Positions 8,861-29,574 of a stretch of DNA of 60,768 bases are shown one piece after another; the first letter of the stretch is position 1; every line of letters starts with the position of its first letter. The position numbers and the translations under genes are program-made. The DNA lies in the IMG/VR virus record IMGVR_UViG_3300027985_001221, positions 1 through 60,768 of that record; one strand, written 5' to 3'. The stretch is from a virus. Taxonomy: Duplodnaviria; Caudoviricetes. Under the pieces are notes generated by a model. That model worked only from the letters and a program-made list of their open reading frames with translations. It did not search any database and was not told the DNA's origin.

Positions 8861-8912
8861 GATCGACAGGAGGCAGGATCGTCCCGCCTCCTTTACCATT
8901 TAGAGGCACTGA

Positions 8913-9158
8913 ATGGAAATATTAATAATAGGAACAGGAGAACGAGCTATGAATCTGAGAGATCATCTACAAATGTATTTGCCAACGTTTCCGCCAACAA
9001 TATCAGTAAAAGAACAATTGGCAATGGCATTAACCGCCACCCCATCATTATTGGATGGGTTTGTTCCGAATACCGGATCTTCTTCAATCCGTCCTTTTCC
9101 CCGTAGAATCAACAGTAAAAAAGCATGGAAAATGCGGGGAAAGAGGCCATCAAAATGA
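8913..9158 (+). CDS. Hypothetical protein
   Basis: ORF downstream of the promoter. Confidence 0.5.
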   Translation: MEILIIGTGERAMNLRDHLQMYLPTFPPTISVKEQLAMALTATPSLLDGFVPNTGSSSIRPFPRRINSKKAWKMRGKRPSK

Positions 9159-9469
9159 GTGATGAGCAGCCAGTAGAGAAAAAAATGGAGATGATCAGAA
9201 TTGCTATCAAGTATTATGTAGTCGATAACAATTTTGAGGTCGAAACTAACACAACTCACCCATCTGATCTAGTGATAGAGTACATTAGATCACAAATCGG
9301 AGCGGGAGAGGACACTTCCCCAGCAAATCGAAAGTCAAAGTATGAAATAGTCATATACCTTGATTTGAGTGATGATTCATTCAAGGTGGTGCATGACTGT
9401 GGCAATGAAGGACTGATGTTGGGCATCCTGATGGAGTACATAAAATATGTCAAACGAATCGAAGGTTGA
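9155..9469 (+). CDS. Hypothetical protein
   Basis: ORF 9125..9469, ATGA-coupled start at 9155. Confidence 0.6.
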   Translation: MSDEQPVEKKMEMIRIAIKYYVVDNNFEVETNTTHPSDLVIEYIRSQIGAGEDTSPANRKSKYEIVIYLDLSDDSFKVVHDCGNEGLMLGILMEYIKYVKRIEG

Positions 9470-9716
9470 TATATCTTGGAAAAGTGAGGGGGCAGTATTA
9501 AAGGGAATGGTTGGTAGTGTCAGGGTGGCTTACATTGCCAATAATTACACAAGGCCAAAGGGCAACACAAAGGATGCATATAAGGCCGTGTTACTGCTCC
9601 CCGATGGGGTGGGCCACACTAAGGTTGAATATCACAGAACCCAATCCGAATCAGTACAATGGCTGGAGTTGAGGATAAGAATATGGATGGAGAAAATAAA
9701 ACACTTTCTAGTATAA
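9447..9716 (+). CDS. Hypothetical protein (tandem paralogue A)
   Basis: Aligns by eye with 9659..9949. Confidence 0.6.
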   Translation: MSNESKVDISWKSEGAVLKGMVGSVRVAYIANNYTRPKGNTKDAYKAVLLLPDGVGHTKVEYHRTQSESVQWLELRIRIWMEKIKHFLV

Positions 9717-9949
9717 TTTGGAGAATGAGAGGAACCGCCATCATAGGAAGGATTAATGAAAAAATGGTGGCAACGGTATCTCCCAATGTTTTTTGTCAAA
9801 AGGAATCAAATGACCGGTACAATGTATTTGTATTGTTACCCAATGAAAAGGGCGATACAATGCATGTACATGAGGAAGACTCGGTTAAAGCAAAAGCATT
9901 AGCTGAAAAGATGGTTAATGACTGGTTTAAAGAGGTATGTAATGGTTAA
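9659..9949 (+). CDS. Hypothetical protein (tandem paralogue B)
   Basis: Aligns by eye with 9447..9716; start uncertain. Confidence 0.6.
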   Translation: MAGVEDKNMDGENKTLSSIIWRMRGTAIIGRINEKMVATVSPNVFCQKESNDRYNVFVLLPNEKGDTMHVHEEDSVKAKALAEKMVNDWFKEVCNG

Positions 9950-11654: not shown

Positions 11655-11854
11655 AGAAAATAACAATTGAAAAGTTCGTACCATCCTGTAGAACATGTCC
11701 CTATGTAACTAATAGTTCAAAGGAGCATGATGACCCCTTTACTTCGGAGCCCCATCCCACAACATGGTGGTGTACTAGCCCGAAGAACAAGGGAATCAAT
11801 GAAAATTTCATAATAATGGACCCTTATAAAGTTGATGATAAGTGTCCAGAATAG
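11651..11854 (+). CDS. Small Cys-containing hypothetical protein
   Basis: CRTCPY...C...CP. Confidence 0.55.
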   Translation: MKKITIEKFVPSCRTCPYVTNSSKEHDDPFTSEPHPTTWWCTSPKNKGINENFIIMDPYKVDDKCPE

Positions 11855-11864
11855 GGGGAATCAA

Positions 11865-12233
11865 ATGAATTATAATAATGAGTATCCAGAGTCAGCAAGC
11901 ATAAAATCAGCATGTATGGAAGATATTGAGGTGCGAATGAAACGGGAAATGAAAACGTTGAAAATCGCCATTAATGCTGAAAATGCCGTGGTTGACCTGA
12001 TGGATATGCATGGTACCAGTAAGGGTGGAATGGAAACACTCGGTCAGGCATGCTTTGTTCGGCATCGGTCAGAGATGACCATAAAAAAGTTGGAGGAAGA
12101 GCACAGGAAAAAAGAGGAAGCTGACAAAAAGCACGAGCAGGAAATCATTAACAGGGCTCGTGAAATTGAACGTCGGCACCATGGGGCCAAATTAACTGAG
12201 GACATGTTGAAGAAAGACTCTAACAAAGAATAG
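11865..12233 (+). CDS. Hypothetical protein with coiled-coil C-terminus
   Basis: ORF 11832..12233, likely start 11865. Confidence 0.6.
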   Translation: MNYNNEYPESASIKSACMEDIEVRMKREMKTLKIAINAENAVVDLMDMHGTSKGGMETLGQACFVRHRSEMTIKKLEEEHRKKEEADKKHEQEIINRAREIERRHHGAKLTEDMLKKDSNKE

Positions 12234-12262
12234 GGGGAGGGGGCATTGTCCCCCTTAATCAA

Positions 12263-12574
12263 ATGTCGGATAACATAACAGTTATTAACATGCCAAAGGC
12301 AATGGGATTGGGCGAAAAAATTGATAGCATTCAAATACGAATTGATACTCCTGTCAGAGAGTTCACATCGATGGAAGATGCTAGAGAATATTATCAGGGC
12401 ACAGCACAGATTTTTGTGAACCTGATACTTCGGACACTCCCCGGTGGGTTGACTGATGCTATCCTTGCCGAATTAATGAGGAAGAAGGCATCCATATTGG
12501 CTGTCCCCGCTATCGGCAGGGATGATCAGACTAAGAACCCCGTGGATTTCGGGGAAATAGTGTTGGATGTGTGA
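12263..12574 (+). CDS. Hypothetical protein
   Basis: 103-aa ORF. Confidence 0.6.
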   Translation: MSDNITVINMPKAMGLGEKIDSIQIRIDTPVREFTSMEDAREYYQGTAQIFVNLILRTLPGGLTDAILAELMRKKASILAVPAIGRDDQTKNPVDFGEIVLDV

Positions 12575-12578
12575 CAAC

Positions 12579-12719
12579 ATGGAAAGAAAAATACGAAATC
12601 TAATTATAGGGACGTTAGTGATTGTGGGGCTTTTGATAACCATGGTGTATAGTGTCAGTGGGACAAAGAACATGGTTAAGATAACCCGTGATACAAAGGA
12701 GATACGTCTCTCTTTGTAG
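12579..12719 (+). CDS. Small membrane protein (46 aa)
   Basis: Read manually: MERKIRNLIIGTLVIVGLLITMVYSV..., one hydrophobic helix. Confidence 0.5.
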   Translation: MERKIRNLIIGTLVIVGLLITMVYSVSGTKNMVKITRDTKEIRLSL

Positions 12720-12727
12720 TAAGAGGC

Positions 12728-12757
12728 TTGACAGGATACCGGTCGGTGTGGTATAAT
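12728..12757 (+). promoter_or_regulatory. Sigma70-type promoter
   Basis: TTGACA-18nt-TATAAT with TG extension. Confidence 0.8.
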
Positions 12758-12812
12758 GGGGCTTACGATGGACGATGACAGCAATTTTTAACCAAAACCA
12801 AGGAGAATTATC

Positions 12813-13352
12813 ATGAACGATCAGAGCGAAAACACTGAAATTATCGAAGAGACTGTTGCTCCCGTAACAGAAGCACCTGAGGCAACTGCACCTGCAGAGC
12901 CCGAAGGTCACAAAAATGCACTCGGCGTCGACCTGCCCCCGGAAGGGACAATGGTAATGTGCGATGATGGCGTTGAACGTCCGGTAGTATACCGTGAGAC
13001 TGCCATCAAGGAAGGTGTCAACCGCTATTTCACTGGTCTTGCCTGTCAGAATGGGCATATGTGTGAACGTAAAGTGAAAGGGTACCTGTGCACCACCTGC
13101 GGTCGTAATCGGCAAAAGGATCGTATCAAATCTAAACTTGCCACCGATCCCGAGTTTAAGGCAAAGCAGAAATCCAAACGTGCTGAACGCCTGAAAAGAA
13201 AATATCAGGAAGACCCGGATTACAAATCCAAACAACTGGCCAAAGCAAAGGAGCGTCGGGCCAAAAAAGCGGAGATCCGCAAAGCAGAAAACATTCGCCT
13301 CAAGGCAGAAGCAGAAGCAAAGGGAGAAACTGCGGGATCTGCCACTGCTTAA
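12813..13352 (+). CDS. Putative Zn-binding, Lys/Arg-rich DNA-binding protein
   Basis: RYFTGxxCxxGH...CxxC followed by a long basic helix. Confidence 0.7.
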   Translation: MNDQSENTEIIEETVAPVTEAPEATAPAEPEGHKNALGVDLPPEGTMVMCDDGVERPVVYRETAIKEGVNRYFTGLACQNGHMCERKVKGYLCTTCGRNRQKDRIKSKLATDPEFKAKQKSKRAERLKRKYQEDPDYKSKQLAKAKERRAKKAEIRKAENIRLKAEAEAKGETAGSATA

Positions 13353-13385
13353 TTGTTAACCCCTACATAATAGGAAAAAACCAGC

Positions 13386-13775
13386 ATGAACAAAAAGTTG
13401 AATGATCTATTCGAAAAAACTGTGGAAGAAGAGGTCAAATCCAGAGTAGATAATATTCTTGTGAATAATATTGAAATGGAAAAAGTGGCTGAAATTCTCA
13501 AATCAGTTAGCGAAGGATTGATGACTGCATATGCTGCCCATATGAAGGCATGCAAGGAGCTTGACAAAATCCTCCCGAACGATTTAAAGGGGATACTAAC
13601 TGAACACAGGAATCAGCGTGGTACCCCCTTTAGGTCAGGAGAACCATGGAGCACCGAAGAAGAGATACAATTGATAAACATGCTTCACACCACAATGGAT
13701 GAATTTGCCAACAAATGTGGTAGATCTTACGGTGCCATCAGATCAAAGGCAAAAAAGATTTTCATTCAGGAATAG
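13386..13775 (+). CDS. Protein with C-terminal Myb/SANT-like HTH
   Basis: PWSTEEEIQL...GRSYGAIRSKAKK. Confidence 0.55.
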   Translation: MNKKLNDLFEKTVEEEVKSRVDNILVNNIEMEKVAEILKSVSEGLMTAYAAHMKACKELDKILPNDLKGILTEHRNQRGTPFRSGEPWSTEEEIQLINMLHTTMDEFANKCGRSYGAIRSKAKKIFIQE

Positions 13776-13784
13776 GGGGAATCA

Positions 13785-14207
13785 ATGGATTACAAAACAT
13801 ATGAAGGAATGTCTCTAGTTGGACTCATTAAGGAAATGGGTGACGTCAAAGAGCAACTGGATAAGGTAACGGAGGAAAAGACAGCACTTCAAAAAACATA
13901 TGATTACCTCCGAATCAATCTTATTCCTGAATTAATGGCAGATGATGATCTGTCGACCATTACCGTAGATGGGGTTGGAAGGGTGTCCCTCACGGCTGAT
14001 ATCTATTCGAGTGTGCCATCTGAAAAGAAAGAGGCGGCATATGAATGGCTGCGGGAGCATCAACTCGGGGATATCATCAAGGAAACAATCAATTCGGGCA
14101 CTCTCAAAGCCACCATTAAAGCCCTCATGAAGAAAGGTGAGGAAGTGCCGGGGGATATATTCAAAGTGACCCCCTACACAAGGGCAAGTATTACCAAGGT
14201 TAAATAG
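13785..14207 (+). CDS. Conserved phage replication-region protein (coiled coil plus small beta domain)
   Basis: AYEWLREHQLGDIIKETI..TLKA pattern, of the kind seen in phage replication modules. Confidence 0.65.
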   Translation: MDYKTYEGMSLVGLIKEMGDVKEQLDKVTEEKTALQKTYDYLRINLIPELMADDDLSTITVDGVGRVSLTADIYSSVPSEKKEAAYEWLREHQLGDIIKETINSGTLKATIKALMKKGEEVPGDIFKVTPYTRASITKVK

Positions 14208-14329
14208 ACTATACGGTTCGCCATGCAAGTACATTGAAAAGGGGGTGGTTCCATTGGGCTAGTTATTGGTAGTATATATAAATGAAGAGCCAATTTCAAA
14301 GTAAAATTTCCAGATAGACCTGTTTTGTT

Positions 14330-14363
14330 AGGGTCAGTTCCACAGGGGGACTGGCCCATTTTT
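14330..14363 (+). terminator. Putative intrinsic terminator
   Basis: GGGTCAGTTCC/GGGACTGGCCC stem followed by ATTTTT. Confidence 0.5.
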
Positions 14364-14399
14364 CCAACATAGAATATACCGCTAAAGGTAGGTAACCAA

Positions 14400-15176
14400 A
14401 TGTCAAACAAAGAAGAAAAAAAGAACGAATTAACAGAGGCCAATTCCAATCAGATCATTATTGCATCAGGTGATGAACTACCCGCATACTTAAAAACTGA
14501 TTCGAACAGGGGATCCGAAGATGTTGGTATTGAAGATCTTACCATCCCCCGCCTTGAAATTGTCCAGGCCCTCTCCCCTTGCCGCAAAAAAACAAATGCC
14601 GCATACATCGAGGGGTGTGAAGAAGGCCAATTATATAATAGCATTACCCGTGAAATCTACGGTGACAAAGTTTTCATTATCCCGGTCGTATTCAAAAAGC
14701 AATGGCTCATTTGGAAAGATCGTGATGCAGGTGGCGGTTTCAAAGGTGCCTATGATACTGCCGAATTAGCAGCAGAAAGATTGATTGAGCTCGAAGAGGA
14801 AAATGCTGTTGGGCCATTTGAATCAGTGGACACTGCTCAACATATCTGCCTGTTGCTTAAACCTAATGGCAAGATCGAAGAGATTGCTATCTCGATGGCC
14901 AAGTCAAAAATGAAAGTGTCCCGTAAATTTAACTCCCTCGTCCGTATCAATGGCGGCGACAGATTCTCCCGTGTATATGAAGTAAGAACGGTAGAGGACA
15001 AATCTGAGAAGGGTGAATATATTAATCTCGACATCAAAACCATCGGCTTCCCATCGGAGGAAATGTACAGGAAAGCCGAGATACTCTTCGATGACATCAA
15101 ATCTGGCAAGCGCGAAGTAAAAGTCAGCGATAAATTCGATGAGGATACTGTTATGGAGGGTGACGTCAAGATCTGA
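14400..15176 (+). CDS. Putative phage-type single-stranded DNA-binding protein
   Basis: DLTIPRLEIVQALSP motif, acidic C-tail, position next to helicase and polymerase. Confidence 0.55.
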   Translation: MSNKEEKKNELTEANSNQIIIASGDELPAYLKTDSNRGSEDVGIEDLTIPRLEIVQALSPCRKKTNAAYIEGCEEGQLYNSITREIYGDKVFIIPVVFKKQWLIWKDRDAGGGFKGAYDTAELAAERLIELEEENAVGPFESVDTAQHICLLLKPNGKIEEIAISMAKSKMKVSRKFNSLVRINGGDRFSRVYEVRTVEDKSEKGEYINLDIKTIGFPSEEMYRKAEILFDDIKSGKREVKVSDKFDEDTVMEGDVKI

Positions 15177-15289
15177 CAGCCCTTTAGTACAGTTCAATGA
15201 TTCAGAGGGATGATAGGTGACACCTCCCGTTGCCGACAAGTGGCCTCCATCACTTCATCCCTTTTTTCTATTGGAGGCATGGTGACACA

Positions 15290-16717
15290 ATGAAATCAAC
15301 AGTTGTTTTGGGTAGCCCCGGCACAGGTAAAACTAGCAACTTGATTAAACGGATTGAAGAAGAAATTGAATCCGGCACTTCCAAAGACAGAATCCACGTA
15401 GTATCCCACACAAGAGTAGCAGCAAACGAAATAAAAGATAGGGCAGGTGCGCATGGTATCAATGCGTCAACTATCCACAGTATGGCATACCGATTCGGTG
15501 AGTTCATAAAAGAACAGGTTGTGTATGGCAAAGAGCTCAAAGACTTCTCGGAAAAATTAGGAATTCCTATGAAGGGCTTTGTTGACGCCACCTTCGATGC
15601 TTTAGAGGTCGGGGACGAGTACATCGCCATCATGAACGTTGCCAACAACACGATGTTGCCCTATGAGCAGGTCTACAAAAACTCTCACAGACCTGGGAAC
15701 TACAATGAATTCAAGTATTTCTACGAGAATTATGAGCATTGGAAGAGGGTGAATGGATTCATCGACTTCAATGACATGATAAAAGTGGGTAAATACGTTG
15801 GTGAGGACCCGATAGAAATCCTATTCATTGACGAGGCACAAGACCTATCAAAGTTGCAATGGGCATTCCTGCATGGGGTGATCAGGGAAAACAAGGTAAA
15901 AAAGGTAATTGTAACTGGCGATCCCGATCAGTCTCTATTCATTTGGGGCGGGGCCGATCGAAGTGGTATGATCAACTTCATAAAAGACTACAAGGCAAAA
16001 GTAGTTGAACTAGATCAATCATATCGAGTACCAATTAACGTCCATAGGATAAGTAGAGACATCATCTCAAGAGTGTCCAATCGGATTGACAAAACATACC
16101 ACCCAGCAGGACACTCCGGGATAATAAGGAAATACTCATCAGCGGATATGCTAGATTTTGACGATGGCGAAACTCTAGTGTTGTATAGAAACCATTCATT
16201 CAGGAGGGATATAGAAGGAATACTAATAGAAAAAGGGCTACCATATAGAGTATTAAATGGAAGACCCGGATTGTTTGAAAACAAATACTCAAATGCAATA
16301 CGTGCAGTACGAAAGATACAGAAAATGGGGCCAAATGATGTTGTTCCCCGGAGTATAGTCAACTGCATAAAATTAGTAGCCACCCCCAAGGCAAAAAAGA
16401 TACTAGAAAAGGGTGAGTTCAGCAAATTATTCACAATGAGGAGGAATGAAGTAATATCGTTCCCATTCAGTGAATGCCAATACTACATGGGGGTGGATGT
16501 ATCAAAGGAACCTAATATACTACTGTCATCAATACACGGGGCTAAAGGTATGGAGGCCGACAGGGTGATTTTATTAAACAGCATCACTCAAAGGGTGAGT
16601 GAAGAAATGTATAATGACCCTGACCCCGAGCATCAAGTATGGTATGTGGCAGTAACTAGGTCTAAGAATAAATTAGATATAGTCGATGGCTATGACGGAG
16701 ACATGTATAACATATGA
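15290..16717 (+). CDS. UvrD/Rep-like SF1 helicase
   Basis: GSPGTGKT, IDEAQD, GDPDQS, QSYR, HGAKGME, YVAVTRS. Confidence 0.92.
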   Translation: MKSTVVLGSPGTGKTSNLIKRIEEEIESGTSKDRIHVVSHTRVAANEIKDRAGAHGINASTIHSMAYRFGEFIKEQVVYGKELKDFSEKLGIPMKGFVDATFDALEVGDEYIAIMNVANNTMLPYEQVYKNSHRPGNYNEFKYFYENYEHWKRVNGFIDFNDMIKVGKYVGEDPIEILFIDEAQDLSKLQWAFLHGVIRENKVKKVIVTGDPDQSLFIWGGADRSGMINFIKDYKAKVVELDQSYRVPINVHRISRDIISRVSNRIDKTYHPAGHSGIIRKYSSADMLDFDDGETLVLYRNHSFRRDIEGILIEKGLPYRVLNGRPGLFENKYSNAIRAVRKIQKMGPNDVVPRSIVNCIKLVATPKAKKILEKGEFSKLFTMRRNEVISFPFSECQYYMGVDVSKEPNILLSSIHGAKGMEADRVILLNSITQRVSEEMYNDPDPEHQVWYVAVTRSKNKLDIVDGYDGDMYNI

Positions 16718-18543
16718 TATTTCCAAACATAATAGACGAAAGTTTAATATCAATAGACACAGAAACCACCAGCTTGGATTGGATGGAGTGTCATTGGTTT
16801 GGATTCTCACTGTCATTTGCGGATGATCAGGATTTTTATTTCGATCTGCGGGAGACACCTAAAGCCCTGGATTGGCTAAGGGACTCTTTGAAATATTACA
16901 GGGGGAGGATCGTAAATCACAACCTTAAATATGATGCACACGTCCTTAGGGAGAATGGAGTGGACATCATAGACCATAACATTGAATGTACTATGGTCAG
17001 GGCATGCCTGATCGATGAAAATAGAATCCTATACAATCTGGATGACGTAGCAAAGGACTGCATAGGAAGAGGAAAAGTTGATCCATATAAAGAGTTGGCT
17101 GGTCTATTTGGAGGTAAGGCCACCCGGAAAGATCAGATAGGAAATCTGGTTAGAGCACCTGTAGATCTAGTTAGTAGGTATGCAAAGGGTGACTCTCGCA
17201 CTGCCCTCGATCTGTGGAAATGGCAAGAAGACGTCATAAATAAAGATGACATATATGGTAATAACCTTTCCAATGTGTCCGGTCTGGAAAATGACGTATT
17301 GAAAGTAATCATAGACATGGAAAGCCATGGAGTAAAGGTCGATATAGACAGGGCCGAAAGATCAATGTATGAATTGGGGAGGGAGATAGACAGGGGCAAA
17401 AAAGAATTGAATAATCTGGCCGGATTTTCAGTCAACCCCAATCCTAGTGGATCTATCCACAAACTGTTCAATCCCAAATGGGACGATCAGACCGGAAAAT
17501 GGGTACTGTGCGATGGGACACTCACAGATTCAACAGAGGGTGGCAAAGCATCAATAGGGGCCGAGACATTGTTACGTATGTCCCATCCAGCAGCAGCCAT
17601 GATCTTGAGAATCAGAAAGCTTGCAAAATGTCGAGGTACGTTCATACAGAAACATATCCTTGAGAAACATAAAAATGGGAGGGTATATCCCAACATCAAT
17701 CAATGCAAGGGGGATGATGGTGGTACTAAAACTGGTAGATTGAGCTATGTTGACCCAGCATTGCAACAGATCCCATCCAGAGATAAAGAGATATCATCAA
17801 TGACTAGGGTATTATTTTTACCAGAGGATGGTGATAATTGGTACAGATTGGATTACAGTCAGGCTGATATGAGGGCCTTTGTGCATTACACCCAATCCCC
17901 GCCATTAATGGCAGCATATAAGAGGGATAAATACACAGATCTCCACAACCTCACTGCTAGTCTGACAGGACTTCCCCGAAATGCCCCGCACAGTGGTGGT
18001 GCCAATGCAAAACAGATAGGATTGGGCCTGATCTTCTCCATGGGAGAGGGTAAGATGGCTCAAGAAATGTCATTACCCTTCACCACCCGAGAGGGTAAAG
18101 GAAGGATATGGTTGGAACCGGGGGAGGAAGCATTAGAAATATTCTCACGTTTCCATGCTGCTGTTCCTGGGGTAAAGGAATTTTCCAAAAGGGCGGTTTC
18201 GGTCGCCAGAAACAGAGGATATGTAATATCGTTGATGGGAAGATTCCTTAGATTCCCGGACAAACACTTTTGCTACAAAGCAGCTGGATATCTTTATCAG
18301 TCGGCCACAGCAGAGTTCAACAAGGTCAAGATGGTTGATACGTGGAGAATGACCAGATATTCCGACACAAGACTCATACTATCAGTTCATGATGAATTGA
18401 ATTTTAGCTCTAATAATCCCGATAGAATGGATAAGGTGAAAGAAGAGATGGAAGATTTTCAATCACCAAAGGCTAGGTTAAAATTAAAAGTTCCGATGGT
18501 AGCAGATATGGGATCGGGACAGAACTGGTATGAGGCCAAATAA
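16714..18543 (+). CDS. dpoZ: Family A DNA polymerase (3'-5' exonuclease plus polymerase, no 5' nuclease), DpoZ-type
   Basis: DTETT and HNLKYD exonuclease motifs; TGRLS; DYSQ motif A; variant motif B PRN..HSGGANAKQIGLGLIF; KAAGYLYQ; VHDE motif C; purZ nearby. Confidence 0.85.
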   Translation: MIFPNIIDESLISIDTETTSLDWMECHWFGFSLSFADDQDFYFDLRETPKALDWLRDSLKYYRGRIVNHNLKYDAHVLRENGVDIIDHNIECTMVRACLIDENRILYNLDDVAKDCIGRGKVDPYKELAGLFGGKATRKDQIGNLVRAPVDLVSRYAKGDSRTALDLWKWQEDVINKDDIYGNNLSNVSGLENDVLKVIIDMESHGVKVDIDRAERSMYELGREIDRGKKELNNLAGFSVNPNPSGSIHKLFNPKWDDQTGKWVLCDGTLTDSTEGGKASIGAETLLRMSHPAAAMILRIRKLAKCRGTFIQKHILEKHKNGRVYPNINQCKGDDGGTKTGRLSYVDPALQQIPSRDKEISSMTRVLFLPEDGDNWYRLDYSQADMRAFVHYTQSPPLMAAYKRDKYTDLHNLTASLTGLPRNAPHSGGANAKQIGLGLIFSMGEGKMAQEMSLPFTTREGKGRIWLEPGEEALEIFSRFHAAVPGVKEFSKRAVSVARNRGYVISLMGRFLRFPDKHFCYKAAGYLYQSATAEFNKVKMVDTWRMTRYSDTRLILSVHDELNFSSNNPDRMDKVKEEMEDFQSPKARLKLKVPMVADMGSGQNWYEAK

Positions 18544-19043
18544 TGAGATTTGAAATAGTCAGGTTTGATAAAGACTATCATCAAGTAGTAGAATCAGTGA
18601 TGATGGATTTTAATAATATACACGATGCGGAAAAATACTGTGAAGGTGCATCCGGGTGCGGAGAGGAATACTATGTAAAGTGCACCAAGCAGGATAACAT
18701 AAAAATAATCGATGAATTGGTTAGGCAAACCGATGTATCGAGTTTTATGTGGCGGGATAAATATGGAGCATATCATAATCCTGGGAGAATGAGAACAAGC
18801 TATTTATTCTTCGTATTGAGAATGATATGGAATCATGTCGTTCCTGATAAGTATAAATTATTCCCATATAAGCAGTATAGTTTCAGTAGCCACTATACAG
18901 TAGAATATATGGCCAATGCAGTAAAATATATTTACAAAGAATTGATGAAAAGAAATGATTTAGAGCAGAGATGGTTAAATGAATTGGCAGAAATGGATAG
19001 AAGTATTAAAGAGATGCAAAAAATGAGGTGTATCAGTGAATAA
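18543..19043 (+). CDS. Hypothetical protein
   Basis: TAATG-coupled to the polymerase. Confidence 0.65.
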   Translation: MRFEIVRFDKDYHQVVESVMMDFNNIHDAEKYCEGASGCGEEYYVKCTKQDNIKIIDELVRQTDVSSFMWRDKYGAYHNPGRMRTSYLFFVLRMIWNHVVPDKYKLFPYKQYSFSSHYTVEYMANAVKYIYKELMKRNDLEQRWLNELAEMDRSIKEMQKMRCISE

Positions 19044-19221
19044 AAATGAAGAGGAATATACCATGGATCTGCTATTGGAGAGGGAACATGCTGTTCTAGT
19101 GTCCGATGGCGATGATGAATATTGGTTACCAAAAAGTCAGATCGAAATTAAAAAGATATCGGGGGAATCGGTAATTGTCACCATACCAGACTGGTTGGCA
19201 AAGGATAAGGGCATAATCTGA
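19036..19221 (+). CDS. Small conserved phage protein (WLPKSQI motif)
   Basis: AVLV..G...WLPKSQIE...IPDWLA. Confidence 0.65.
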   Translation: MNKNEEEYTMDLLLEREHAVLVSDGDDEYWLPKSQIEIKKISGESVIVTIPDWLAKDKGII

Positions 19222-19412
19222 TGTTTAAAGGAGAAAAAGTAATCGGGGTGAATGTCAACAGTCACAGAGGATTTCTATCTGTGACAACTAAAGATACAAA
19301 TAACAACCATAAAACATATGAATTCGGGTATGGGGCATACAAAGAACATGCAGATAAGGTTCAAAAAATATTGGATGCCACCGACGAATTATTGAAATCA
19401 GTCAGGAACTGA
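19221..19412 (+). CDS. Hypothetical protein
   Basis: Coupled ORF. Confidence 0.55.
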   Translation: MFKGEKVIGVNVNSHRGFLSVTTKDTNNNHKTYEFGYGAYKEHADKVQKILDATDELLKSVRN

Positions 19413-19427
19413 TATATCAAACAATCA

Positions 19428-19456
19428 TTGACAGCGGGGGCTCAGCGTGGTATAAT
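19428..19456 (+). promoter_or_regulatory. Sigma70-type promoter of the purZ-containing operon
   Basis: TTGACA-17nt-TATAAT with TG extension. Confidence 0.85.
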
Positions 19457-19473
19457 GGAAGGAGGTGATAGCA

Positions 19474-19656
19474 GTGCCCAACACAGTTAGAAAAATCAAT
19501 GGAAAATGGAGAGTAGTGGAAAAAGCCACTGGAAAAGTAACAACTAATTCGGCTGGCACCCCGGTGGATGGACCGGGACACTCCTCAAAAGCAGGGGCGG
19601 AAAGACAGGCTGCAGCCATAAACATCAACCAACACAAGAAAAAGAGGAAGAGATGA
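19474..19656 (+). CDS. Small basic protein
   Basis: GGAGGT RBS then GTG at 19474. Confidence 0.6.
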   Translation: MPNTVRKINGKWRVVEKATGKVTTNSAGTPVDGPGHSSKAGAERQAAAININQHKKKRKR

Positions 19657-20072
19657 CAAAAAGATACATAGGAACCAATATCATACATGCAAAACCAATG
19701 ACCTTGGGGCAGTATAATGAATACAGAGGATGGAAGATCCCTGAAAATGAAGATCCAAATAAAGCGGGATATCTTGTCATATATAGCGATATGTATGAAT
19801 CATGGTCCCCTGCCGATGTATTTGAAGAAGCCTACATCGAAACTGATGAAATGAATTTCGGATTGGCGTCGGAAGCAATGAGACGTGGAAACAGATGTTT
19901 TAGGGGCAAGTGGAATAAGAACCACAATCGTAAACACATCGAACTGGTCGAACCCGATAGTGTCAGTGAGATGACTGAACCATATTTTTTAATCAATGTT
20001 AATGGAACTACGTTCCCATGGACACCTCTGGCAGAAGATCTGTTAGCTGTCGATTGGTGTATTTTGGACTAA
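19653..20072 (+). CDS. DUF2829 / Thoeris anti-defence 2 (Tad2)-like protein with N-terminal extra domain
   Basis: MNFGLA.EA.RRG....R..WN...PWTP...DLLA.DW pattern. Confidence 0.7.
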   Translation: MTKRYIGTNIIHAKPMTLGQYNEYRGWKIPENEDPNKAGYLVIYSDMYESWSPADVFEEAYIETDEMNFGLASEAMRRGNRCFRGKWNKNHNRKHIELVEPDSVSEMTEPYFLINVNGTTFPWTPLAEDLLAVDWCILD

Positions 20073-20097
20073 TCATAACTCAAGGAGAAGAAGTACC

Positions 20098-20367
20098 ATG
20101 AAGAAATTCATTGCAGTGTCCCTCGTTTCGTTATCCTTTGCAGCATGCTCAACGTTGACCATCCAGGATTCGTACGTCGACGATCAGGGAAGGGAGCATA
20201 CTTGCGTTGCAAAGAGGTCAGCCTTTGGAATCGGGGTGTCCGATGTCGAGACTAATGTATGTAATTCTAATACTAAAATCGGAAATTCTGATTCCAGCAA
20301 GTCATTGGCCGACGCTATTGTTAATGCACTTGCTAACTATGTTAGGGCAACGGGGGACGCTCAATGA
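20098..20367 (+). CDS. Lipoprotein
   Basis: MKK plus hydrophobic stretch plus lipobox FAAC. Confidence 0.7.
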   Translation: MKKFIAVSLVSLSFAACSTLTIQDSYVDDQGREHTCVAKRSAFGIGVSDVETNVCNSNTKIGNSDSSKSLADAIVNALANYVRATGDAQ

Positions 20368-20540
20368 GTGTATGGAAAAGACAGGTAAAGAAATTCCAAT
20401 GTGATGTATGCGGCAAAGACTTCAACAACAAAAGGGCTTATTCCAATCACATGAAGGATAAGCACAATGGAGATGAATGCAAGGTATTCAAAGCCTTCAA
20501 AAATCAGGACGTTAAATACGGGGAGGGTCCACATGATTAA
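20364..20540 (+). CDS. C2H2 zinc-finger protein (58 aa), absent from the ORF track
   Basis: FQCDVCGKDFNNKRAYSNHMKDKH; ATGA overlap with the lipoprotein and 8-nt overlap with purZ. Confidence 0.75.
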   Translation: MSVWKRQVKKFQCDVCGKDFNNKRAYSNHMKDKHNGDECKVFKAFKNQDVKYGEGPHD

Positions 20541-21633
20541 TTTCAAAAACAAGATTAAGGCTAAGATTGATGTACTGTATGGCGGACAGTATGGCAGTGA
20601 GTCAAAACGACTATTCACCGAATTCTACACAAAAATGTTCAAAACTGACACAATCATTTCAAATTTTGGGCCGAATTCCGGGGGATTTGATTCATTTGGA
20701 AGCAAATGGTCAGTATTCCCGATCGGTTTTGATGGTAACATCATGTTGTCGGCGGGGTCAATCATCCCCGAGGAAAGATTCTGGAAGGAGGCAGAACAAC
20801 TGCCGTCCGGGGCTAACATTGTAATACACCCTAATGCCTGTGTGGTGAACGACGATCATCGACAAAGAGAGGCCGACAGGGTAACCATCGGTAGCACGAT
20901 GACCGGGACCATGGAAGCTGTCGTGCAAAAAATGCGGAGAGACCCCAACAATATCAATACAGCAGCGAACTCTGGCCTAAGGGAGTTCGTCGTTAGTCAA
21001 GAGGAATGGCTACAGAGAATTGTTGATTGTGAAAGTGCCCTGGTAGTGGTCCCCCAAGGCCATTCTTTGTCGATCAATCATGGTATGTACCCCTTCTGTA
21101 CCAGTAGAAACACCTCCCCTCAACAGGGTCTTGCCGATGCCGGAATCCCAATCTGGTTGGTAAGGGATATTATCGGCTGTTTCAGGACCTATCCTATCAG
21201 GGTGGCCAATCGCTATGATGATGATGGTAATATGATTGGTTATTCTGGTCCATGTTATGATGACCAGAAAGAAATGACATGGGATGAAATAGGTGTCCCG
21301 GCTGAATATACCAGCATCAGTAAAAAGATGAGAAGGGTGTTCAATTTTTCCATCAAACAATATGTTGAGTCGGTGTTGATGAATGGATGTACTAAGGTAT
21401 TCATGAATTTTATGAATTACCTAGGACATGCCGACTCACAGCAATTCTTGGTCAACCTCAATGAATTGGGACTCCCTGCCAGAGTGGAATGGGCTGGATA
21501 TGGTCCAAAATGTACGGATATTGCCAAGGTCAAGTATGTTGACAAAGCCGAATATGAAAAGATGATGGTGAATGATGCCGGAATATTTAGCACACTAAGG
21601 GGAGGATTCGATAATCCGGGAAGGGAGAACTAA
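20533..21633 (+). CDS. purZ: PurZ-like N6-succino-2-amino-2'-deoxyadenylate synthase (adenylosuccinate synthetase homologue)
   Basis: GGQYGSESK (Ser at the PurA catalytic Asp position), IGST..G, QG.SLS, YPFCTSR, RTYPIRV, RRVF, NFMNY (ATP-type, not TKLD); GGAGG RBS before ATG 20533. Confidence 0.88.
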   Translation: MINFKNKIKAKIDVLYGGQYGSESKRLFTEFYTKMFKTDTIISNFGPNSGGFDSFGSKWSVFPIGFDGNIMLSAGSIIPEERFWKEAEQLPSGANIVIHPNACVVNDDHRQREADRVTIGSTMTGTMEAVVQKMRRDPNNINTAANSGLREFVVSQEEWLQRIVDCESALVVVPQGHSLSINHGMYPFCTSRNTSPQQGLADAGIPIWLVRDIIGCFRTYPIRVANRYDDDGNMIGYSGPCYDDQKEMTWDEIGVPAEYTSISKKMRRVFNFSIKQYVESVLMNGCTKVFMNFMNYLGHADSQQFLVNLNELGLPARVEWAGYGPKCTDIAKVKYVDKAEYEKMMVNDAGIFSTLRGGFDNPGREN

Positions 21634-21636
21634 AAA

Positions 21637-21927
21637 ATGATATCATTGGACACTAACCATCCAGTAACTAATACTGCAGCTGAATTGTGGGGAGAAAATG
21701 GCCAAGTCAACATTCTACAGGAAGAATGTGCAGAACTGATCTCGGCCATAGCAAGAAGAAATAGGGGGAGGAATGGTAACGATGAGGTTGCAGAGGAGGC
21801 TGCTGATGTGTTAGTGTCCTTGATGTCTGTTATCCCAATCCTAGGGATAGAAGAAGATGTAATTAGGCACATGAATTTTAAGATAAATCGTTTGGACAAG
21901 CGAATAAAATCATTAATGGAGGGATGA
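21637..21927 (+). CDS. mazZ: MazG-like nucleotide pyrophosphohydrolase (MazZ-like)
   Basis: EECAEL...EEAADV (ExxE/ExxD), between purZ and datZ. Confidence 0.75.
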   Translation: MISLDTNHPVTNTAAELWGENGQVNILQEECAELISAIARRNRGRNGNDEVAEEAADVLVSLMSVIPILGIEEDVIRHMNFKINRLDKRIKSLMEG

Positions 21928-22511
21928 TGTCAGAACTAAATATAAAAGACATACTACGTTCGGGTCATGTCATCAGGTGGCAAATAGTAAGGACAGTGAG
22001 AGATCAAACTCTGGCAGAACATCTATTCACTGTAACAATCCTGAGTATCGAGATGTCAAACAGAGTATTCACGAAGGGTATATCTGATCAGATGAAACTA
22101 AAAATGATCGATTGGGCCTTGCGTCATGATATGCCCGAAATCTATACAGGAGATGTTGCCACGCCAGTAAAGAAAAGAATGAAGGCAGTGGACCCTGGAT
22201 TCTTTGACACCATCGAACGTGGTATATCAAAGAAATACTCGGACGCAAAGGATTCAGTATCAGGGACACCCTTCGAAGTAATAGTCAAGCTGGCGGATCT
22301 GCTGGATGGCATATCATTTCTCGATACAGAAGGGTTGGGGGACCATGCTAAGGACGTGTCCAGAAAGCTGAAAACTGAATATGCTAATCTGGTGGAGACA
22401 GCCAAGGTAAGGTTTTTTGATCTCAACTGGAATGAATCAACAAAAATGTTGTATGAGGTGACAGAGGGTAAGGACAGTCACCTTGAATATGAATCAAATG
22501 GAGGAATTTGA
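21924..22511 (+). CDS. datZ: HD-domain dATP triphosphohydrolase (DatZ-like)
   Basis: R.GHV.RW.IVRT...QTLAEH, HDMPEIYTGD..TP.K, VKLAD. Confidence 0.85.
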   Translation: MMSELNIKDILRSGHVIRWQIVRTVRDQTLAEHLFTVTILSIEMSNRVFTKGISDQMKLKMIDWALRHDMPEIYTGDVATPVKKRMKAVDPGFFDTIERGISKKYSDAKDSVSGTPFEVIVKLADLLDGISFLDTEGLGDHAKDVSRKLKTEYANLVETAKVRFFDLNWNESTKMLYEVTEGKDSHLEYESNGGI

Positions 22512-23122
22512 TGTCAGTAAAAAATGATTGCGGCAATGAGGTACATAAATTCTTGTGGTTTGATACTGAAACTACAGGGACCGACCCAATAAAACATGAC
22601 ATAATCCAAATAGCTGGCCAAATTGTGGTGGGAGGAATAGTGATGGACAGCTTCGATTACAGATGTCAACCCTTTGATTGGGACACTATTGAGGAAAAAG
22701 CCCTTGAGAAGAATGGCATAACTAGGGAAGAAATAGCCACATTCCCGGAGCCAGATATAATCTACGGAAAGCTAAAGCGCATGTTCAGGAAGTACATCAA
22801 TCCCTATGATAAGGCTGACAAGTTCATTGCCGGGGGTCAAAATGTAAGATTTGACATCGATATGACCCATCACTTCTTCAAGAAGAATAAAGATGATTTT
22901 TTCTTCTCCTTCGTCCGGGCGGGAGTTTTCGACACACTACATATGGCGACGATGCTGGAGGTCAAGGAAAGGAAAAGGATATTCAAGAAGGGATACAAGC
23001 TTGAACAGCTTTGTGAGGAACTCGGAGTGCCATTGGAGAATGCCCACGATGCATTGGCCGACATCACTGCCACTCGGCAAGTTGCAAACATACTCTGGAA
23101 AAGATTGGTGATGGGGGAATAA
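22511..23122 (+). CDS. DEDDh 3'-5' exonuclease (DnaQ-like)
   Basis: DTETTG, N..FD, H.ALAD. Confidence 0.9.
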   Translation: MSVKNDCGNEVHKFLWFDTETTGTDPIKHDIIQIAGQIVVGGIVMDSFDYRCQPFDWDTIEEKALEKNGITREEIATFPEPDIIYGKLKRMFRKYINPYDKADKFIAGGQNVRFDIDMTHHFFKKNKDDFFFSFVRAGVFDTLHMATMLEVKERKRIFKKGYKLEQLCEELGVPLENAHDALADITATRQVANILWKRLVMGE

Positions 23123-25787: not shown

Positions 25788-26207
25788 TCATTCCTCTGGT
25801 GTAGTGCGCTTAACACTATCAGTCATTACCCCAATTGGCCTTTCTTCTGTCCCGGTAACATTTCCCTCTTCGTCAGTGATCTCAATAGTGTACATAATTG
25901 GATCATACTCCATGGGATTACCATCTGCATCAGTTTCCCATTCAGTTCGAATCCATTCTACATTATCCGATTTTTTGAGCTTTTCAAGTTCCTTGGCAGT
26001 GTCGTACTCACATCGGATTGTGATGTAATCACCGAACCACGGAGTGTTACAAAGGGGAAATGCCTCCTCTATTTTACTTGCTCCTGGATTCCCCTTACCA
26101 AATTTTTGTAAACCGACGTTGACCAAATCTTGCCATGTCACATCGGGTGATAATCTTTTTAGAACAACGTTAACTGTCTCCAGTTTCTTTTTATATTTAG
26201 TTCCCAC
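25788..26207 (-). CDS. Hypothetical protein, possible tail-fibre chaperone
   Basis: Directly follows the tail fibre gene. Confidence 0.55.
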   Translation of the reverse strand: MGTKYKKKLETVNVVLKRLSPDVTWQDLVNVGLQKFGKGNPGASKIEEAFPLCNTPWFGDYITIRCEYDTAKELEKLKKSDNVEWIRTEWETDADGNPMEYDPIMYTIEITDEEGNVTGTEERPIGVMTDSVKRTTPEE

Positions 26208-29200
26208 GAAGAGCCTCCTCTATTGTTTTTGTTTTATTGGATATTGCTAAACAATTTGCATCAGACAGTGCCCTATTTATAATAACCGCTGATATTATAC
26301 CATTGTATGGATTGGAATTGTTATAATATGACCCCAATCTACATGATGTTTGCGGCACGAAATGTTGGGTATCAGAAAGTGAATTGTATACTCCACCCAC
26401 CCATAATTTTTTTAGATTTTCATTAGTGGACACTTTGAAAACAATGAATACATCTTCACTGGCAGCATATGAGTAAGTTAATGATATATTGTTACTGATC
26501 CCGGCATCAGCTATATAGCATATGTAAGTTGCCGAAAGTATCTGAACAATATACCGATCCTCAAGAGAACCTGTCCAAGTGTCGAATAAACATTGATTAG
26601 AAGCTATTTGTGAGCCACTTGATTTTTGTCTTAAAATAAGGGTGAAGTTATCCCCACTATTTGGTATGAGTTTATCCACTGTTATTATTGTTAATGCTCT
26701 TGTTGCTGTGGAAGTTGTGGTAATTATTGGAGATGTGGCATAAGATCCTGATTCTGCCTGGGAAAATGCAACATAAGCTCCCTTTACTCCATCACCAGTA
26801 TACGTACCACCTCTAGCAGTGGTTCCAGTATCAACAAAGTATAAACTACATCCAGCAGTCGATGCTGTTCCAGATACAGTATATGTGATAACATACCAAC
26901 CATGATTACCAATTGGTGATATTGATGCAGTACAATCAGTTGAAGCGGTAACTGTACCATTAATTATATCATAGTTTGCATATGCAGTACCATTGAACGC
27001 TGAGGGGGAGTTCATTTGTACATATTGCACACCATTGGATCTTATTACAACTGATCTAGTGTGTGGAGTCGGCATTACCACAGTACCAGTGACAGCATGA
27101 GCCCCGGTTCCAACTGTAGCAGTTAATCTTGATACAACTCTTTCAATATATGAGTCGTATACTTGATCAACATTCATAGTTGATTTTGTCCATGCTGCAT
27201 TTGTCATGTCACTGCCATACACAAACAAATTAGTTGCAGCTGGTTCACAAAGAATTCCACCAGCACTGGGTGAATAAAAACCGCCATATTTAAGTTTTGA
27301 TGGAATAACTGCTGTAGTAACTGCTGATGCATCAGTTATAACATATCCATTAAAATAGTTACTTAATTCAATTTGAACGTGTGCAAGATAAAATCCACTA
27401 ACCCCATCTCCCGTATATGATGGAAATCGAGAGTTATAATTGTTATCGTTACATGCAACTATGTATGCTGAATAAGTGGTAGTGGTAACAGTAGCTGGAG
27501 ATGTAATAGAACATCTATACCAACCATTGTTAACATATTCAATTTCACCAGAAGCAGCACTTCCATATGAAACTACTTTACCCTCTCTTAAATCAAAAGT
27601 TGCCCAAGCATTGGAACCGAACGCAGCAGATGCAAATGTAAGCTGAGCTTTACTTATTTCTCCCGCTTTGAGTAGGGCAGTTTGAGTATACACCGAACCG
27701 CTGGTAAAAGAGGCAGAGTTATCACAAGCCACAAAGTGAGAAGAGCTGTTTACTTTTGCGACTATTTTTCTAGCATCCCTTCCCGGTATCGGTCCGGACA
27801 CTTCTGTAGTTGCCACTGGCTCTTCTACATAATATACCAACCACCCATTGGCAGTGGTGGGTGCAGTTGAATATTTCACATAATTGAAGGCGGTACCAAC
27901 AGTAGTGACTGCAGCAGTGGTTGTTGTAATGGGCGGTGTAGCAGTAGAACCAGTTTCAAGTTGAGCACCCCATGCCACTACACTTGTTAATGAACAAGTT
28001 AAACCACGGGTGTCCATACAGTAAACATTAATCGAGGTTGCAGATGGAGTAAAGGATATTGTATACCTTTGCCATTTTTCTGTTACACTAACATCTGTTC
28101 TATGGTGTGCCCCATCATACCATCCTAATGTCCATGTTCCGGTACCAGATACAGTCCTTAAAAAGATACTATATGTATATGGGTTACCAGAAGTTACTCC
28201 AGTAACAGTCTCAGAACAAAATGCAGCTGATGGAGTAGTTGCAGTAATTGTATCAGCATCCTGTGCACCTGTAGGTGAAACATGGGTATCAGCCGAAACA
28301 GTACCACTCGATATTACCCAGGGTGGAGCATTTTCAAATCCACTGCTTCTTGTTAACAGATTGGTTGCTGCTGGAGTGTATGACCATGGTGCAGTGGACC
28401 ATCCAGTTTCTGATCCTTCATACCATCCATTTTTATAATTGACCCTTTTATACTTTGAATGATAACCTAATGTATCAGTATAACTTTTATATTGGTCATA
28501 AACCTTTGTCCCCTGTATCATCCTATAAGGGTGCGTCCTTGACCCATCCGGGAGAGTGTCCTTGAACTTTGGTATTATCTCCCTTATTGATATATAAGTT
28601 ATCAATACATCAACATTGGTAACGCTTCTAGTTATATTAAATGTAGTGGATATTGCCCCCTTCTGTGTGATGGTATTGAAATCAACAGTATTGGGGGTAA
28701 AAAAGTCTGATTTTACCGACCCACTGGTAACAACACCAGATATTTTAAAAAGGTAATTTTTCCCAACTGTTAAAGTATTAAGTTGGTTTACTACTAACTG
28801 AGGGGAAGTTGTATCACTTTGATACCTCATTCCACTACTGCTGAAAGTAACAATGTGAGTTGCATCCTCCCCCGATACTGATAATCCAGCTCCGGTATTA
28901 AGATTACCTGTGAATAATTCTGGACCAAGGTAGTAATCGTCATTGTTATATATTGAATTGTTAAAGGTTATTGGTTTGACTGTAAAATCATCAATAACCA
29001 TGGTAGATCCAGCATAACATTTTATGTATACTGAGTTATTTATTTCTTTTATACCATCATATACATAAGTACCAGGACCTGTAAATGTATATGAATCGGC
29101 ACCGCTGGTTAATGATATTGCTCCAGTACCAGATATCGATGAAACTTTTACTGATACCCTATATTTTGCTCCTATAGTTGCGATATTTTCTTGATATATA

Positions 29201-29565: not shown

Positions 29566-29574
29566 ATCTTCTCC

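Follow-up and report, generated by a model that had tools for sequence, protein, structure and literature searches.

Phages with Z genomes, i.e., with 2-aminoadenine (Z) in their DNA, are to our knowledge the only organisms in which the geometry of a canonical base pair is replaced genome-wide, and the enzymes PurZ, DatZ, MazZ and DpoZ have been used for making ZTGC DNA in E. coli. Here we analyse the IMG/VR virus record IMGVR_UViG_3300027985_001221 (60,768 bases; hereafter the window, meaning the whole stretch of DNA analysed) and a gene cluster in it that encodes a PurZ homologue, a small MazG/HisE-fold pyrophosphohydrolase, a DatZ-type HD hydrolase and, upstream, a DpoZ-type polymerase. Homologues of PurZ or PurZ0 are found in over 200 deposited phage records, and seven groups of Z phages have been counted among NCBI viruses (PMC12884076). 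The families to which the proteins belong, their conserved specificity residues, the synteny and the retention of the genes in relatives lead us to the reading, to which we give a probability of roughly 80%, that the window carries a working Z pathway in a replication module of the phiVC8/SH-Ab 15497 type and that its genome is Z-substituted, whereby we infer the enzyme activities and the Z content from these lines of evidence.

Vibrio phage phiVC8 (Enhodamvirus), which encodes DpoZ, PurZ, MazZ-2 and DatZ, shares with the window a polymerase of the same DpoZ subfamily, which is 38% identical and retains the insertions and the E1/E2 residues, the succession of purZ, a small pyrophosphatase and datZ, a DatZ of 32% identity (E 6e-29) and, upstream, a helicase and proteins of 140 and 258 amino acids (aa) at 37-44% identity. 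It differs in its PurZ, which is 35% identical and belongs to another subfamily (GSTGKG and NAGHT in phiVC8), in its MazZ-2, which is unrelated to the window protein at the sequence level (E 0.055; hhalign 6%), and in its genome of 39 kb, the structural genes of which are unmatched; moreover, no DnaQ-like exonuclease follows its DatZ. Among cultured phages, the DpoZ most similar to that of the window (43%) is encoded by Acinetobacter phage SH-Ab 15497 and Salmonella phage PMBT28, which also have the same order of 258-aa protein, UvrD/PcrA helicase (36-37% identical to the one in the window), DpoZ, PurZ, pyrophosphatase and DatZ. In place of a 96-aa MazG fold, however, they have a pyrophosphatase of 290-385 aa in which PF18909 and PF04447 (DUF5664 and DUF550) are fused, together with a classic-type PurZ and, in genomes of 43-48 kb, an unrelated structural arm. 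With Bm1 added to these phages, the shared order comprises a helicase, the 140-aa protein, the 258-aa protein (Pam3_Gp34-like), (UvrD), DpoZ, PurZ, a pyrophosphatase and DatZ at 27-54% identity, the SF2 helicase and the 140-aa and 258-aa proteins accounting for values of 37-54%.

Cyanophage S-2L (datZ-mazZ-purZ) likewise encodes, between purZ and datZ, a small enzyme of the MazG/HisE fold and has identical key residues in DatZ. Its MazZ-1, however, matches the window protein weakly (BLASTP E 0.001, 28% over 65 residues; hhalign probability 41%), with a Ser in place of the guanine-reading Asp60, and S-2L has a PrimPol instead of a DpoZ (PMC8065100). The PurZ0 or Wayne-like Z phages of Actinomycetota have in common with the window the Ser at the position of PurA Asp13, followed by Glu (GSEAKG there, GSESKR in the window), but PurZ0 keeps NAGH, has no NFxNY motif and falls outside the PurZ clade, and the enzymes of these phages include a Dut-like one, DmtZ and a DpoZ of a different cluster (PMC12884076).

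The gene order in the window was read from an open reading frame (ORF) map together with three profile libraries (Pfam, PHROGs and NCBIfam), and the coordinates are collected in Table 1. The original prediction, made from the letters alone, had named four genes, for a polymerase, a PurA homologue, a MazG-like protein and an HD hydrolase, and ORF map and profiles place all four on the plus strand where it had put them. It had also described the MazG-like and HD genes as directly following the PurA homologue with the polymerase about 2 kb upstream, which agrees with a gap of 3 nucleotides (nt) between the first two genes, an overlap of 4 nt between MazG and HD, and 2.0 kb from the end of the polymerase to the start of PurZ. 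Its Ser at the Asp13 position and its ATP-type NFxNY motif are found in alignments as GSESKR and NFMNY, and its assignments of the polymerase to DpoZ and, as far as dATP-selecting residues can tell, of the HD protein to DatZ are borne out by the evidence given below. Missing from its gene list was a stand-alone DnaQ-like exonuclease that lies within the same interval.

Table 1. Coordinates of the features identified in the window.
Feature	Coordinates	Strand	Identification
Replication module	5473..15176	+	PHROGs
Primase	5473-7083	+	PHROGs
SF2 helicase	9918-11654	+	PHROGs
PHROG 2378 protein	13785-14207	+	PHROGs
Pam3_Gp34-like protein	14400-15176	+	Pfam PF23977
UvrD/PcrA-like SF1 helicase, directly upstream of DpoZ	15230..16717	+	Pfam UvrD-helicase E 7.7e-29
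DpoZ, phiVC8-like family A polymerase with 3'-5' exonuclease domain	16714..18543	+	NCBIfam NF038380, PDB 7PBK
Tad2-like (Thoeris anti-defence 2-like) domain protein	19653..20072	+	Pfam PF11195 E 1.8e-14, 54.5 bits (cut-off 25)
PurZ homologue, KR-type	ORF 20467-21633, probable start 20533	+	PHROG 1211, PDB 6FM1/7ODX, tree
Small MazG/HisE-fold pyrophosphohydrolase, 96 aa	21637..21927	+	Pfam MazG 27.5 bits (cut-off 22); PHROG 2245 E 1.3e-18
DatZ-type HD hydrolase	21924..22511	+	PHROG 7076, PDB 6ZPA, Pfam YfbR-like/HD_3
Stand-alone DnaQ-like (DEDD) 3'-5' exonuclease	22508..23122	+	Pfam RNase_T E 7.3e-20; PHROG 192
M15 peptidase endolysin	23784-24176	+	Pfam Peptidase_M15_3 E 7.8e-19
Bacterial-type single-stranded DNA-binding protein (SSB)	24588-24986	+	Pfam SSB E 5.7e-41
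Structural/packaging arm (with small and large terminase and head-closure protein)	26197..55903	-	PHROGs
Tail protein	26197-29565	-	PHROGs
Giant polyvalent protein, 2681 aa	30407-38452	-	Pfam ART-PolyVal E 2.8e-17, FtsK_gamma
Major head protein	48840-49811	-	PHROGs
Portal	51088-53199	-	PHROGs

The polymerase scores 702.4 bits on NCBIfam NF038380 (phage_DpoZ_1; curated cut-off 500), while DNA polymerase I models reach at most 220 bits on the same protein, under their own cut-offs, and Pfam recognises DNA_pol_A in addition to the 3'-5' exonuclease. The PDB ranking puts phiVC8 DpoZ (7PBK) at E 5e-123 vs 3.6e-39 for Klenow. Features described for DpoZ are three insertions, extended exonuclease helices and the residues R161 and M165 (PMC8599892). 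In the alignment with phiVC8 DpoZ, the exonuclease Asp and Glu are retained and R161 is kept as R138, while M165 is replaced by Ile142, the variant that is given for DpoZ at this position (PMC8599892). Insertion 1 (palm, G349-G353) is present as GDDGG at 333-337, insertion 2 (helix O, A442-P448) as APHSGGA, a 7-residue loop, at 424-430, and insertion 3 (finger tip, P473-K491) at 455-468, where it is 6 residues shorter. Motif B reads KQIGLGLIF in the window vs KQMNLGMIF in phiVC8, with identical Leu and Phe, which we take to stand at positions B3 and B4 by mapping from Klenow F762 and Y766. A Leu at B3 and a Phe at B4 are marks of DpoZ (PMC10201439). Furthermore, a tblastn search with the polymerase over 50,697 phage records returned 60 at E<=1e-60, 58 of which score 379-496 bits and belong to genera that also carry PurZ; after a sharp drop in score follow the other two, Microcystis phage Me-ZS1 and phage DSL-LC04 (232-236 bits). 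By family, the polymerase is a phiVC8-type DpoZ (PolA cluster 18), for which a preference for dZTP is predicted.

The HD protein matches Pfam PF12917 (E 5.9e-11) and PF13023 (E 5.1e-9), both above their cut-offs, as well as S-2L DatZ in the PDB (6ZPA, E 2.8e-12) and PHROG 7076, 'dATP triphosphohydrolase' (E 8.7e-32). All nine key residues of S-2L DatZ that were checked (R19, W20, I22, Q29, A32, G74, P79, K81 and K116) are conserved, their equivalents in the window being R18, W19, I21, Q28, A31, G76, P81, K83 and K122. In DatZ, Trp20 excludes the ribose 2'-OH and Ile22 the 2-amino group of G and Z (PMC8065100; bioRxiv preprint), and R19, P79, K81 and K116 make phosphate and base contacts (PMC8065100). 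Since Trp and Ile are retained, the signature of dATP specificity is intact, and by these residues the HD protein is a DatZ-type predicted dATP triphosphohydrolase.

For PurZ, the probable start at 20533 is preceded by GGAGG 8 nt upstream and gives a 366-aa product, which is the form on record. The protein matches PHROG 1211, the PurZ family, and its PDB matches are ordered from phiVC8 PurZ (6FM1, E 4e-47) and S-2L PurZ (7ODX, 1.7e-44) through PurZ0 (1e-19) and archaeal PurA (2e-12) to bacterial PurA (3e-5 or weaker). With an AlphaFold model calculated from 23 subfamily members (mean predicted local distance difference test score, pLDDT, 78.8), Foldseek returned PurZ chains at all of ranks 1-9 (E 3.5e-29 to 9e-21), followed by archaeal PurA and PurZ0. 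A maximum-likelihood tree with 67 rows, calculated in IQ-TREE under LG+G4 with E. coli PurA as the root, sampled 45 of the 120 listed PurZ hits along with 23 sequences from references and loci; the 29-aa broken ORF of locus L016 was excluded from the trees, and the long-branched PurA of Flavobacterium phage MaF61 from the careful tree. Clustering with canonical PurA, the outcome that the original prediction had set against itself, was not observed: the window protein lies inside a PurZ clade sensu lato (support 100/99), away from PurA and PurZ0, both of which stand outside it. Within this clade it belongs to a KR-type clade of 25 rows (100/100), the sister of which is a 29-row clade (96/94) with the PurZ of S-2L, phiVC8, SH-Ab 15497, PMBT28 and Bm1; one classic-type row, P0093, falls outside both with weak support (86/49).

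Besides PurZ0, Ser-bearing short PurA-like proteins of bacterial genomes and metagenome-assembled genomes (L015-L024, among them the Lacibacter chromosome L020) also fall outside the PurZ clade. These proteins of 323-352 aa form a clade (99/98) adjoining PurZ0 and have Ser at the Asp13 position, yet a full GSEGKGK P-loop and NSGHT, so that Ser at this position alone is not diagnostic of a phage PurZ.

The KR-type branch is compact, with 2 of the best 150 hits in 1.84 billion representatives at 50% identity (371 and 328 bits, followed by 228 bits); the full-length one of the two has KR and NSGG, and the other is a fragment. Among deposited phages no PurZ is more than 38% identical to that of the window. 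The alignment of 23 KR-type members (A1) has 90 invariant columns at a mean identity of 55%, which indicates purifying selection on KR-type PurZ. No mention of a PurZ subfamily lacking the catalytic-site His was found in the Z-pathway literature searched, where the supplements of PMC12884076, PMC8342488 and the bioRxiv preprint may contain KR-type sequences. Judged by phylogeny and motifs, the window PurZ is thus a member of a distinct, coherent and previously unremarked 'KR-type' subfamily, the sister group of every PurZ characterised so far.

The residues that define this subfamily were tabulated for the 120 best hits in a collection of 5.8 billion proteins. In 43 of them the P-loop G-S-x-x-K-R is accompanied by N-S-G-G with a deletion of 2 residues, and 42 of these 43 also have Q-G-H; another 75 combine G-S-x-G-K-G with N-[AS]-G-H-T and all keep the His; the remaining two are N-terminal fragments, and there are no intermediates between the motif classes. 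In the window, where the P-loop GSESKR ends in Lys-Arg, Ser22 (366-aa numbering) stands at the PurA Asp13 position, aligns with S14 of phiVC8, S23 of S-2L and D13 of E. coli, and is invariant in A1. The ATP motif is NFMNY vs NFCNY in phiVC8 and NFAQY in S-2L, and GYGP corresponds to GFGP in both; in S-2L PurZ, the site of the adenine-nucleotide donor is made up of N305, F306, Q308, G335 and P336 (PMC8342488). After IRVAN follows a PurZ-specific insertion, IRVANRYDDDGNMIGYSGPCYDDQ, which aligns with the insertions of SH-Ab 15497 and S-2L and is not present in E. coli PurA; the insertion after the conserved Arg-Val of PurZ excludes ribonucleotides (PMC8342488). Also retained are the GST, YPFCTSR and KKMRR motifs, Asn48 and Gln175. 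KR-type PurZ probably carries out the reaction of other PurZ, at a phosphoryl-transfer site that has been rewired.

The MazG-like gene sits between purZ and datZ, as in the definition of the Z cluster (PMC8342488). In its alignment (A2), E29, E30, E33, E53, E54 and D57 are invariant (EExxE...EExxD acidic motifs), and the AlphaFold model (pLDDT 95.3) consists of three helices; its Foldseek neighbours are all MazG, iMazG, DCTPP1/dCTPase or HisE, with probabilities of at most 0.99 and every E above 0.05. A profile search of the PDB led to 5IE9 and 2GTA (E 0.0044), which are Bacillus MazG-type, with no entry named MazZ among 12 matches, and the single sequence matched nothing in the PDB at E<=0.1. 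The original prediction had taken the protein for a MazZ, a claim that is not upheld at the level of orthology to either MazZ type. Because it is not clearly a MazZ and has Ser at the Asp60 position, its place in the dGMP supply step is a guess, and we presume it to be the dGMP supplier. The slot itself varies among KR-type relatives: MazG-like proteins occupy it in G001 (43%) and G004 (61%), a stand-alone PF18909 (DUF5664) protein in L013, G002 and G003, and the PF18909+PF04447 fusion in SH-Ab 15497 and PMBT28. A slot for dGMP supply held by yet another, third kind of unrelated pyrophosphatase fits the picture of 'functional convergence' among Z phages (PMC12884076). PF18909 proteins (dATP/dGTP diphosphohydrolase N-terminal) that come without PF04447 after PurZ were located in L013 (6738-7265), L026 (11048-11509) and L028 (11067-11486), where a conserved Cys-rich ORF of 66-67 aa lies between the PF18909 protein and DatZ.

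The KR-type PurZ subfamily is metagenomic. A scan of IMG/VR with the single PurZ protein gave nothing, and with the PurZ alignment it gave six loci. Overall, KR-type PurZ is clustered with DatZ in 8 of 9 loci examined (7 distinct loci after merging duplicates) and with DpoZ wherever the record extends upstream. Every examined KR-type locus with DatZ has a DnaQ-like exonuclease right after it (L013, L014/L029, L025, L026, L027, L028 and L030; 41-51% identity), and none was found in the loci of phiVC8, S-2L, SH-Ab 15497, Bm1 and PMBT28; this protein may be a second proofreading or a dA-removal activity. The sister of the window is G001, an uncultivated IMG/VR record of 62,384 bp with direct terminal repeats, in which 31 of 81 window ORFs (at least 70 aa, on the coding strands) are matched in the same order. 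Identities are 80% for the major head protein, 66% for the large terminase, 62-63% for DpoZ, 57% for PurZ, 51-53% for the portal, 44% for DatZ and 43% for the MazG-like protein, so that the entire Z cluster is kept (43-63%); the two genomes differ by a family- or genus-level divergence, and many early genes are unshared. Three further IMG/VR records of 45-47 kb contain KR-type PurZ, DpoZ and DatZ and do not match the window portal or head protein. In addition, a 135-kb contig binned as Omnitrophota (L012) encodes a KR-type PurZ of 55% identity at 9989-10960, next to an ATP-dependent DNA ligase, YqeY, a TROVE/Ro-like protein, a ClpB-like ATPase and an ORF with a weak resemblance to nucleoside 2-deoxyribosyltransferases that stays under the cut-off of Pfam; this contig may belong to a large phage that takes another route to Z.

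According to the proposed pathway, the MazG-fold pyrophosphatase would take dGTP, and perhaps also dATP, to the monophosphate, and PurZ would join dGMP and aspartate, using ATP or dATP, to form N6-succino-2-amino-2'-deoxyadenylate. Host PurB and host kinases would complete dZTP, DatZ would convert dATP to deoxyadenosine, and DpoZ would copy the genome with Z opposite T. Restriction resistance of the phage DNA would be a consequence that we infer from this.

Several observations weigh against a working Z pathway. In PurZ, the NAGHT of PurA and PurZ is replaced by NSGG with a 2-residue gap, and no His occurs in the first 98 residues. Lost with it is the equivalent of S-2L His52 and of E. coli His41, a catalytic residue of PurA, whereas PurZ0 has it. 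In S-2L PurZ, His52 contacts the triphosphate (PMC8342488). The His of QGH was considered as a stand-in and rejected, with QGH in 8 of 150 library representatives, at least 6 of which keep NxGH. The aspartate loop TTVTK has become TSISK in the window and TS[IV]SK in the KR-type, and the NCBIfam PurZ model NF038379, although the top model ahead of archaeal-type PurA (93 bits), stays at 197.4 bits, short of its cut-off of 300. The PurZ of the original prediction therefore stands as a member of the clade, and as an atypical one. As to the pyrophosphatase, sequence comparison makes it no demonstrable orthologue of MazZ-1 or MazZ-2: S-2L MazZ Asp60 aligns with Ser64 by BLASTP in a column that is variable in A2, and N20 lies outside the aligned stretch. 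N20 and D60 read guanine in S-2L MazZ, D60 its 2-amino group (PMC8342488). Genes for PurB, a kinase or other nucleotide-metabolism enzymes were not found in the ORFs scanned, including a Pfam search of 20 further early-region ORFs, which makes completion of the pathway dependent on the host. Moreover, the five public runs listed are all stored as assembled contigs, which are blind to the base-calling effects of Z; three of the five contain the window sequence, and two of these three may be its source. In addition, GATC (226 vs 307 expected), CATG (260 vs 347) and GGATCC (1 vs 11.8) are depleted in the window; depletion of such A-containing sites argues against blanket protection by Z.

Part of this would be accounted for if KR-type PurZ had lost or changed its activity, with DatZ, the MazG-like protein and the polymerase acting as general genes of the deoxynucleoside triphosphate (dNTP) pool and of replication and with DNA that is ATGC or partly substituted. 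Under this explanation one would read the absence of the His41/His52 equivalent with the 2-residue deletion in all 43 KR-type proteins that have an N-terminus, the PurZ score under the NCBI cut-off, the persisting avoidance of GATC, CATG and GGATCC, and the Omnitrophota-binned genome, in which neither DatZ nor DpoZ was found using the window proteins as queries. We nevertheless consider it unlikely, since KR-type PurZ shows strong conservation (90 columns do not vary across 23 sequences, and all the remaining substrate-binding motifs are among them) and keeps the company of DatZ in 8 of 9 loci (7 distinct) and of DpoZ wherever the record reaches far enough upstream, since the Trp and Ile that give DatZ its dATP specificity would be useful only if A is excluded, and since the polymerase scores above the cut-off of the curated DpoZ model.

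Palindrome statistics bear on the same question. In an exploratory comparison of observed and Markov-expected counts (O/E) of palindromic hexamers, which covered five sequences (three of these incomplete) and had no adequate non-Z control set, GC-only palindromes have an O/E of 0.03 in the window (2 observed, 62.6 expected), 0.14 in G001, 0.15 in a 16-kb piece of phiVC8, 0.53 in a 19-kb piece of Bm1 and 0.60 in 50 kb of Methanosarcina virus MetMV, with 0.88, 0.88, 0.77, 0.75 and 0.77, respectively, for A/T-containing palindromes. Non-palindromic hexamers in the window are at 1.0, and, as an observation on single sites, CCCGGG and GGGCCC are absent from it (17.1 and 5.4 expected). This contrast fits, in a tiny sample, a selection focused on sites that Z cannot protect. 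About half of the restriction enzymes tested still cut dZ DNA (PMC12944874), and the depletion of GATC, CATG and GGATCC is consistent with this.

That the KR-type enzyme makes some other product, from another purine monophosphate or phosphate donor, for DNA with a purine modification other than 2-aminoadenine is very improbable: the rewired phosphoryl-transfer site (P-loop Lys-Arg, NSGG for NAGHT), the serines in place of the aspartate-loop threonines and a MazG-like partner unlike both MazZ types would suit it, but the N-F-x-N-Y and G-Y-G-P residues around the adenine of ATP and the surroundings of the dGMP base and sugar (Ser22, Asn48, GST, Gln175, IRV and the PurZ insertion) are retained, and the partners DatZ and DpoZ are enzymes of the Z pathway.

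Within the preferred reading, i.e., a working Z pathway, a further proposal is tentative and in our view has rather less than an even chance: KR-type PurZ may be mechanistically distinct, still making the dZ precursor without the His of the superfamily, and may mark a separate radiation of Z phages. The P-loop Arg (GSExKR), which is confined to the KR branch, would take over the stabilisation of the gamma-phosphate, and the radiation would consist of environmental, uncultured Z phages of 45-62 kb that added a DnaQ-like exonuclease to the cluster and freely exchanged the enzyme that supplies dGMP, which would be a MazG-like protein in some and a lone DUF5664 protein in others. The only runs that contain the window sequence are labelled 'hydrothermal vent metagenome', which is not independent evidence, and it is speculation, drawn from this label by itself, that Z substitution of a genome with 41% G+C might also serve thermal stability.

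As to the record as a whole, CheckV gives a completeness of 100%, and bases 1-144 are identical to 60625-60768 in a record classed as 'linear, no end repeats'; by this identity the two ends of the assembly join up. With the terminal overlap of 144 bp subtracted, the window represents the whole genome, of about 60.6 kb, of a tailed phage of bacteria that has not been cultivated. Tandem repeats of 42 bp with half units of 21 bp lie at both ends (1-114 and 60609-60738; 2.7 and 3.1 copies), and this terminal repeat region may be iteron-like or a packaging region. Genes run on the plus strand from about 250 to 26,100 and from 56,700 and on the minus strand from 26,197 to 55,903, with which the GC skew is consistent; the G+C content is 41-42%, and the window contains no tRNA genes. 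Of the three small ORFs between DpoZ and PurZ, one encodes the Tad2-like domain, and this protein is outside the Z pathway; G001 has a homologue (39% identity) at another position within the module.

For the structural arm, the original prediction had proposed a short-tail type with a polyvalent protein, and a new lineage. The polyvalent protein is there as described (Table 1), with an ADP-ribosyltransferase domain of polyvalent proteins at residues 1673-1791 and an FtsK-gamma DNA-binding domain at 1196-1243; a 3002-aa gene is found at the matching position in the structural arm of MetMV. The short tail is not established, as no tail tube, sheath or tape-measure family among 20 structural-arm proteins scanned is absence of evidence only, and a podovirus body would be no mark of distinction because known Z phages include Podoviridae (PMC8599892). 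The new lineage stands up: megablast of 20 kb against the 50,697 phage records found no close DNA relative, and the sole match of the portal among them was MetMV (27%), where matches are limited to the portal, the head protein and the head-closure protein (25-28%). By these searches, the phage represents a lineage without a cultured or described relative. An archaeal host, suggested by the MetMV portal match, by one subfamily member labelled Methanoregula and by the G+C content, was rejected in view of the peptidoglycan peptidase of the M15 family, the bacterial-type SSB and the confinement of the MetMV matches to three proteins. A bacterial host is indicated because the phage encodes this endolysin and this SSB.

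Altogether, the kind of Z system described here is well known; new are the lineage, the PurZ subfamily with its rewired site and the third kind of pyrophosphatase. A phage of an uncultured lineage with a Z pathway widens the known range of hosts and habitats beyond the seven groups counted so far. Since KR-type PurZ scores below the NCBIfam PurZ cut-off, homology screens at that cut-off under-count metagenomic Z phages. KR-type PurZ is missed by current curated models and does without a residue thought to be indispensable in its superfamily, and in this respect it represents a natural experiment on phosphoryl transfer once Asp13 is already gone.

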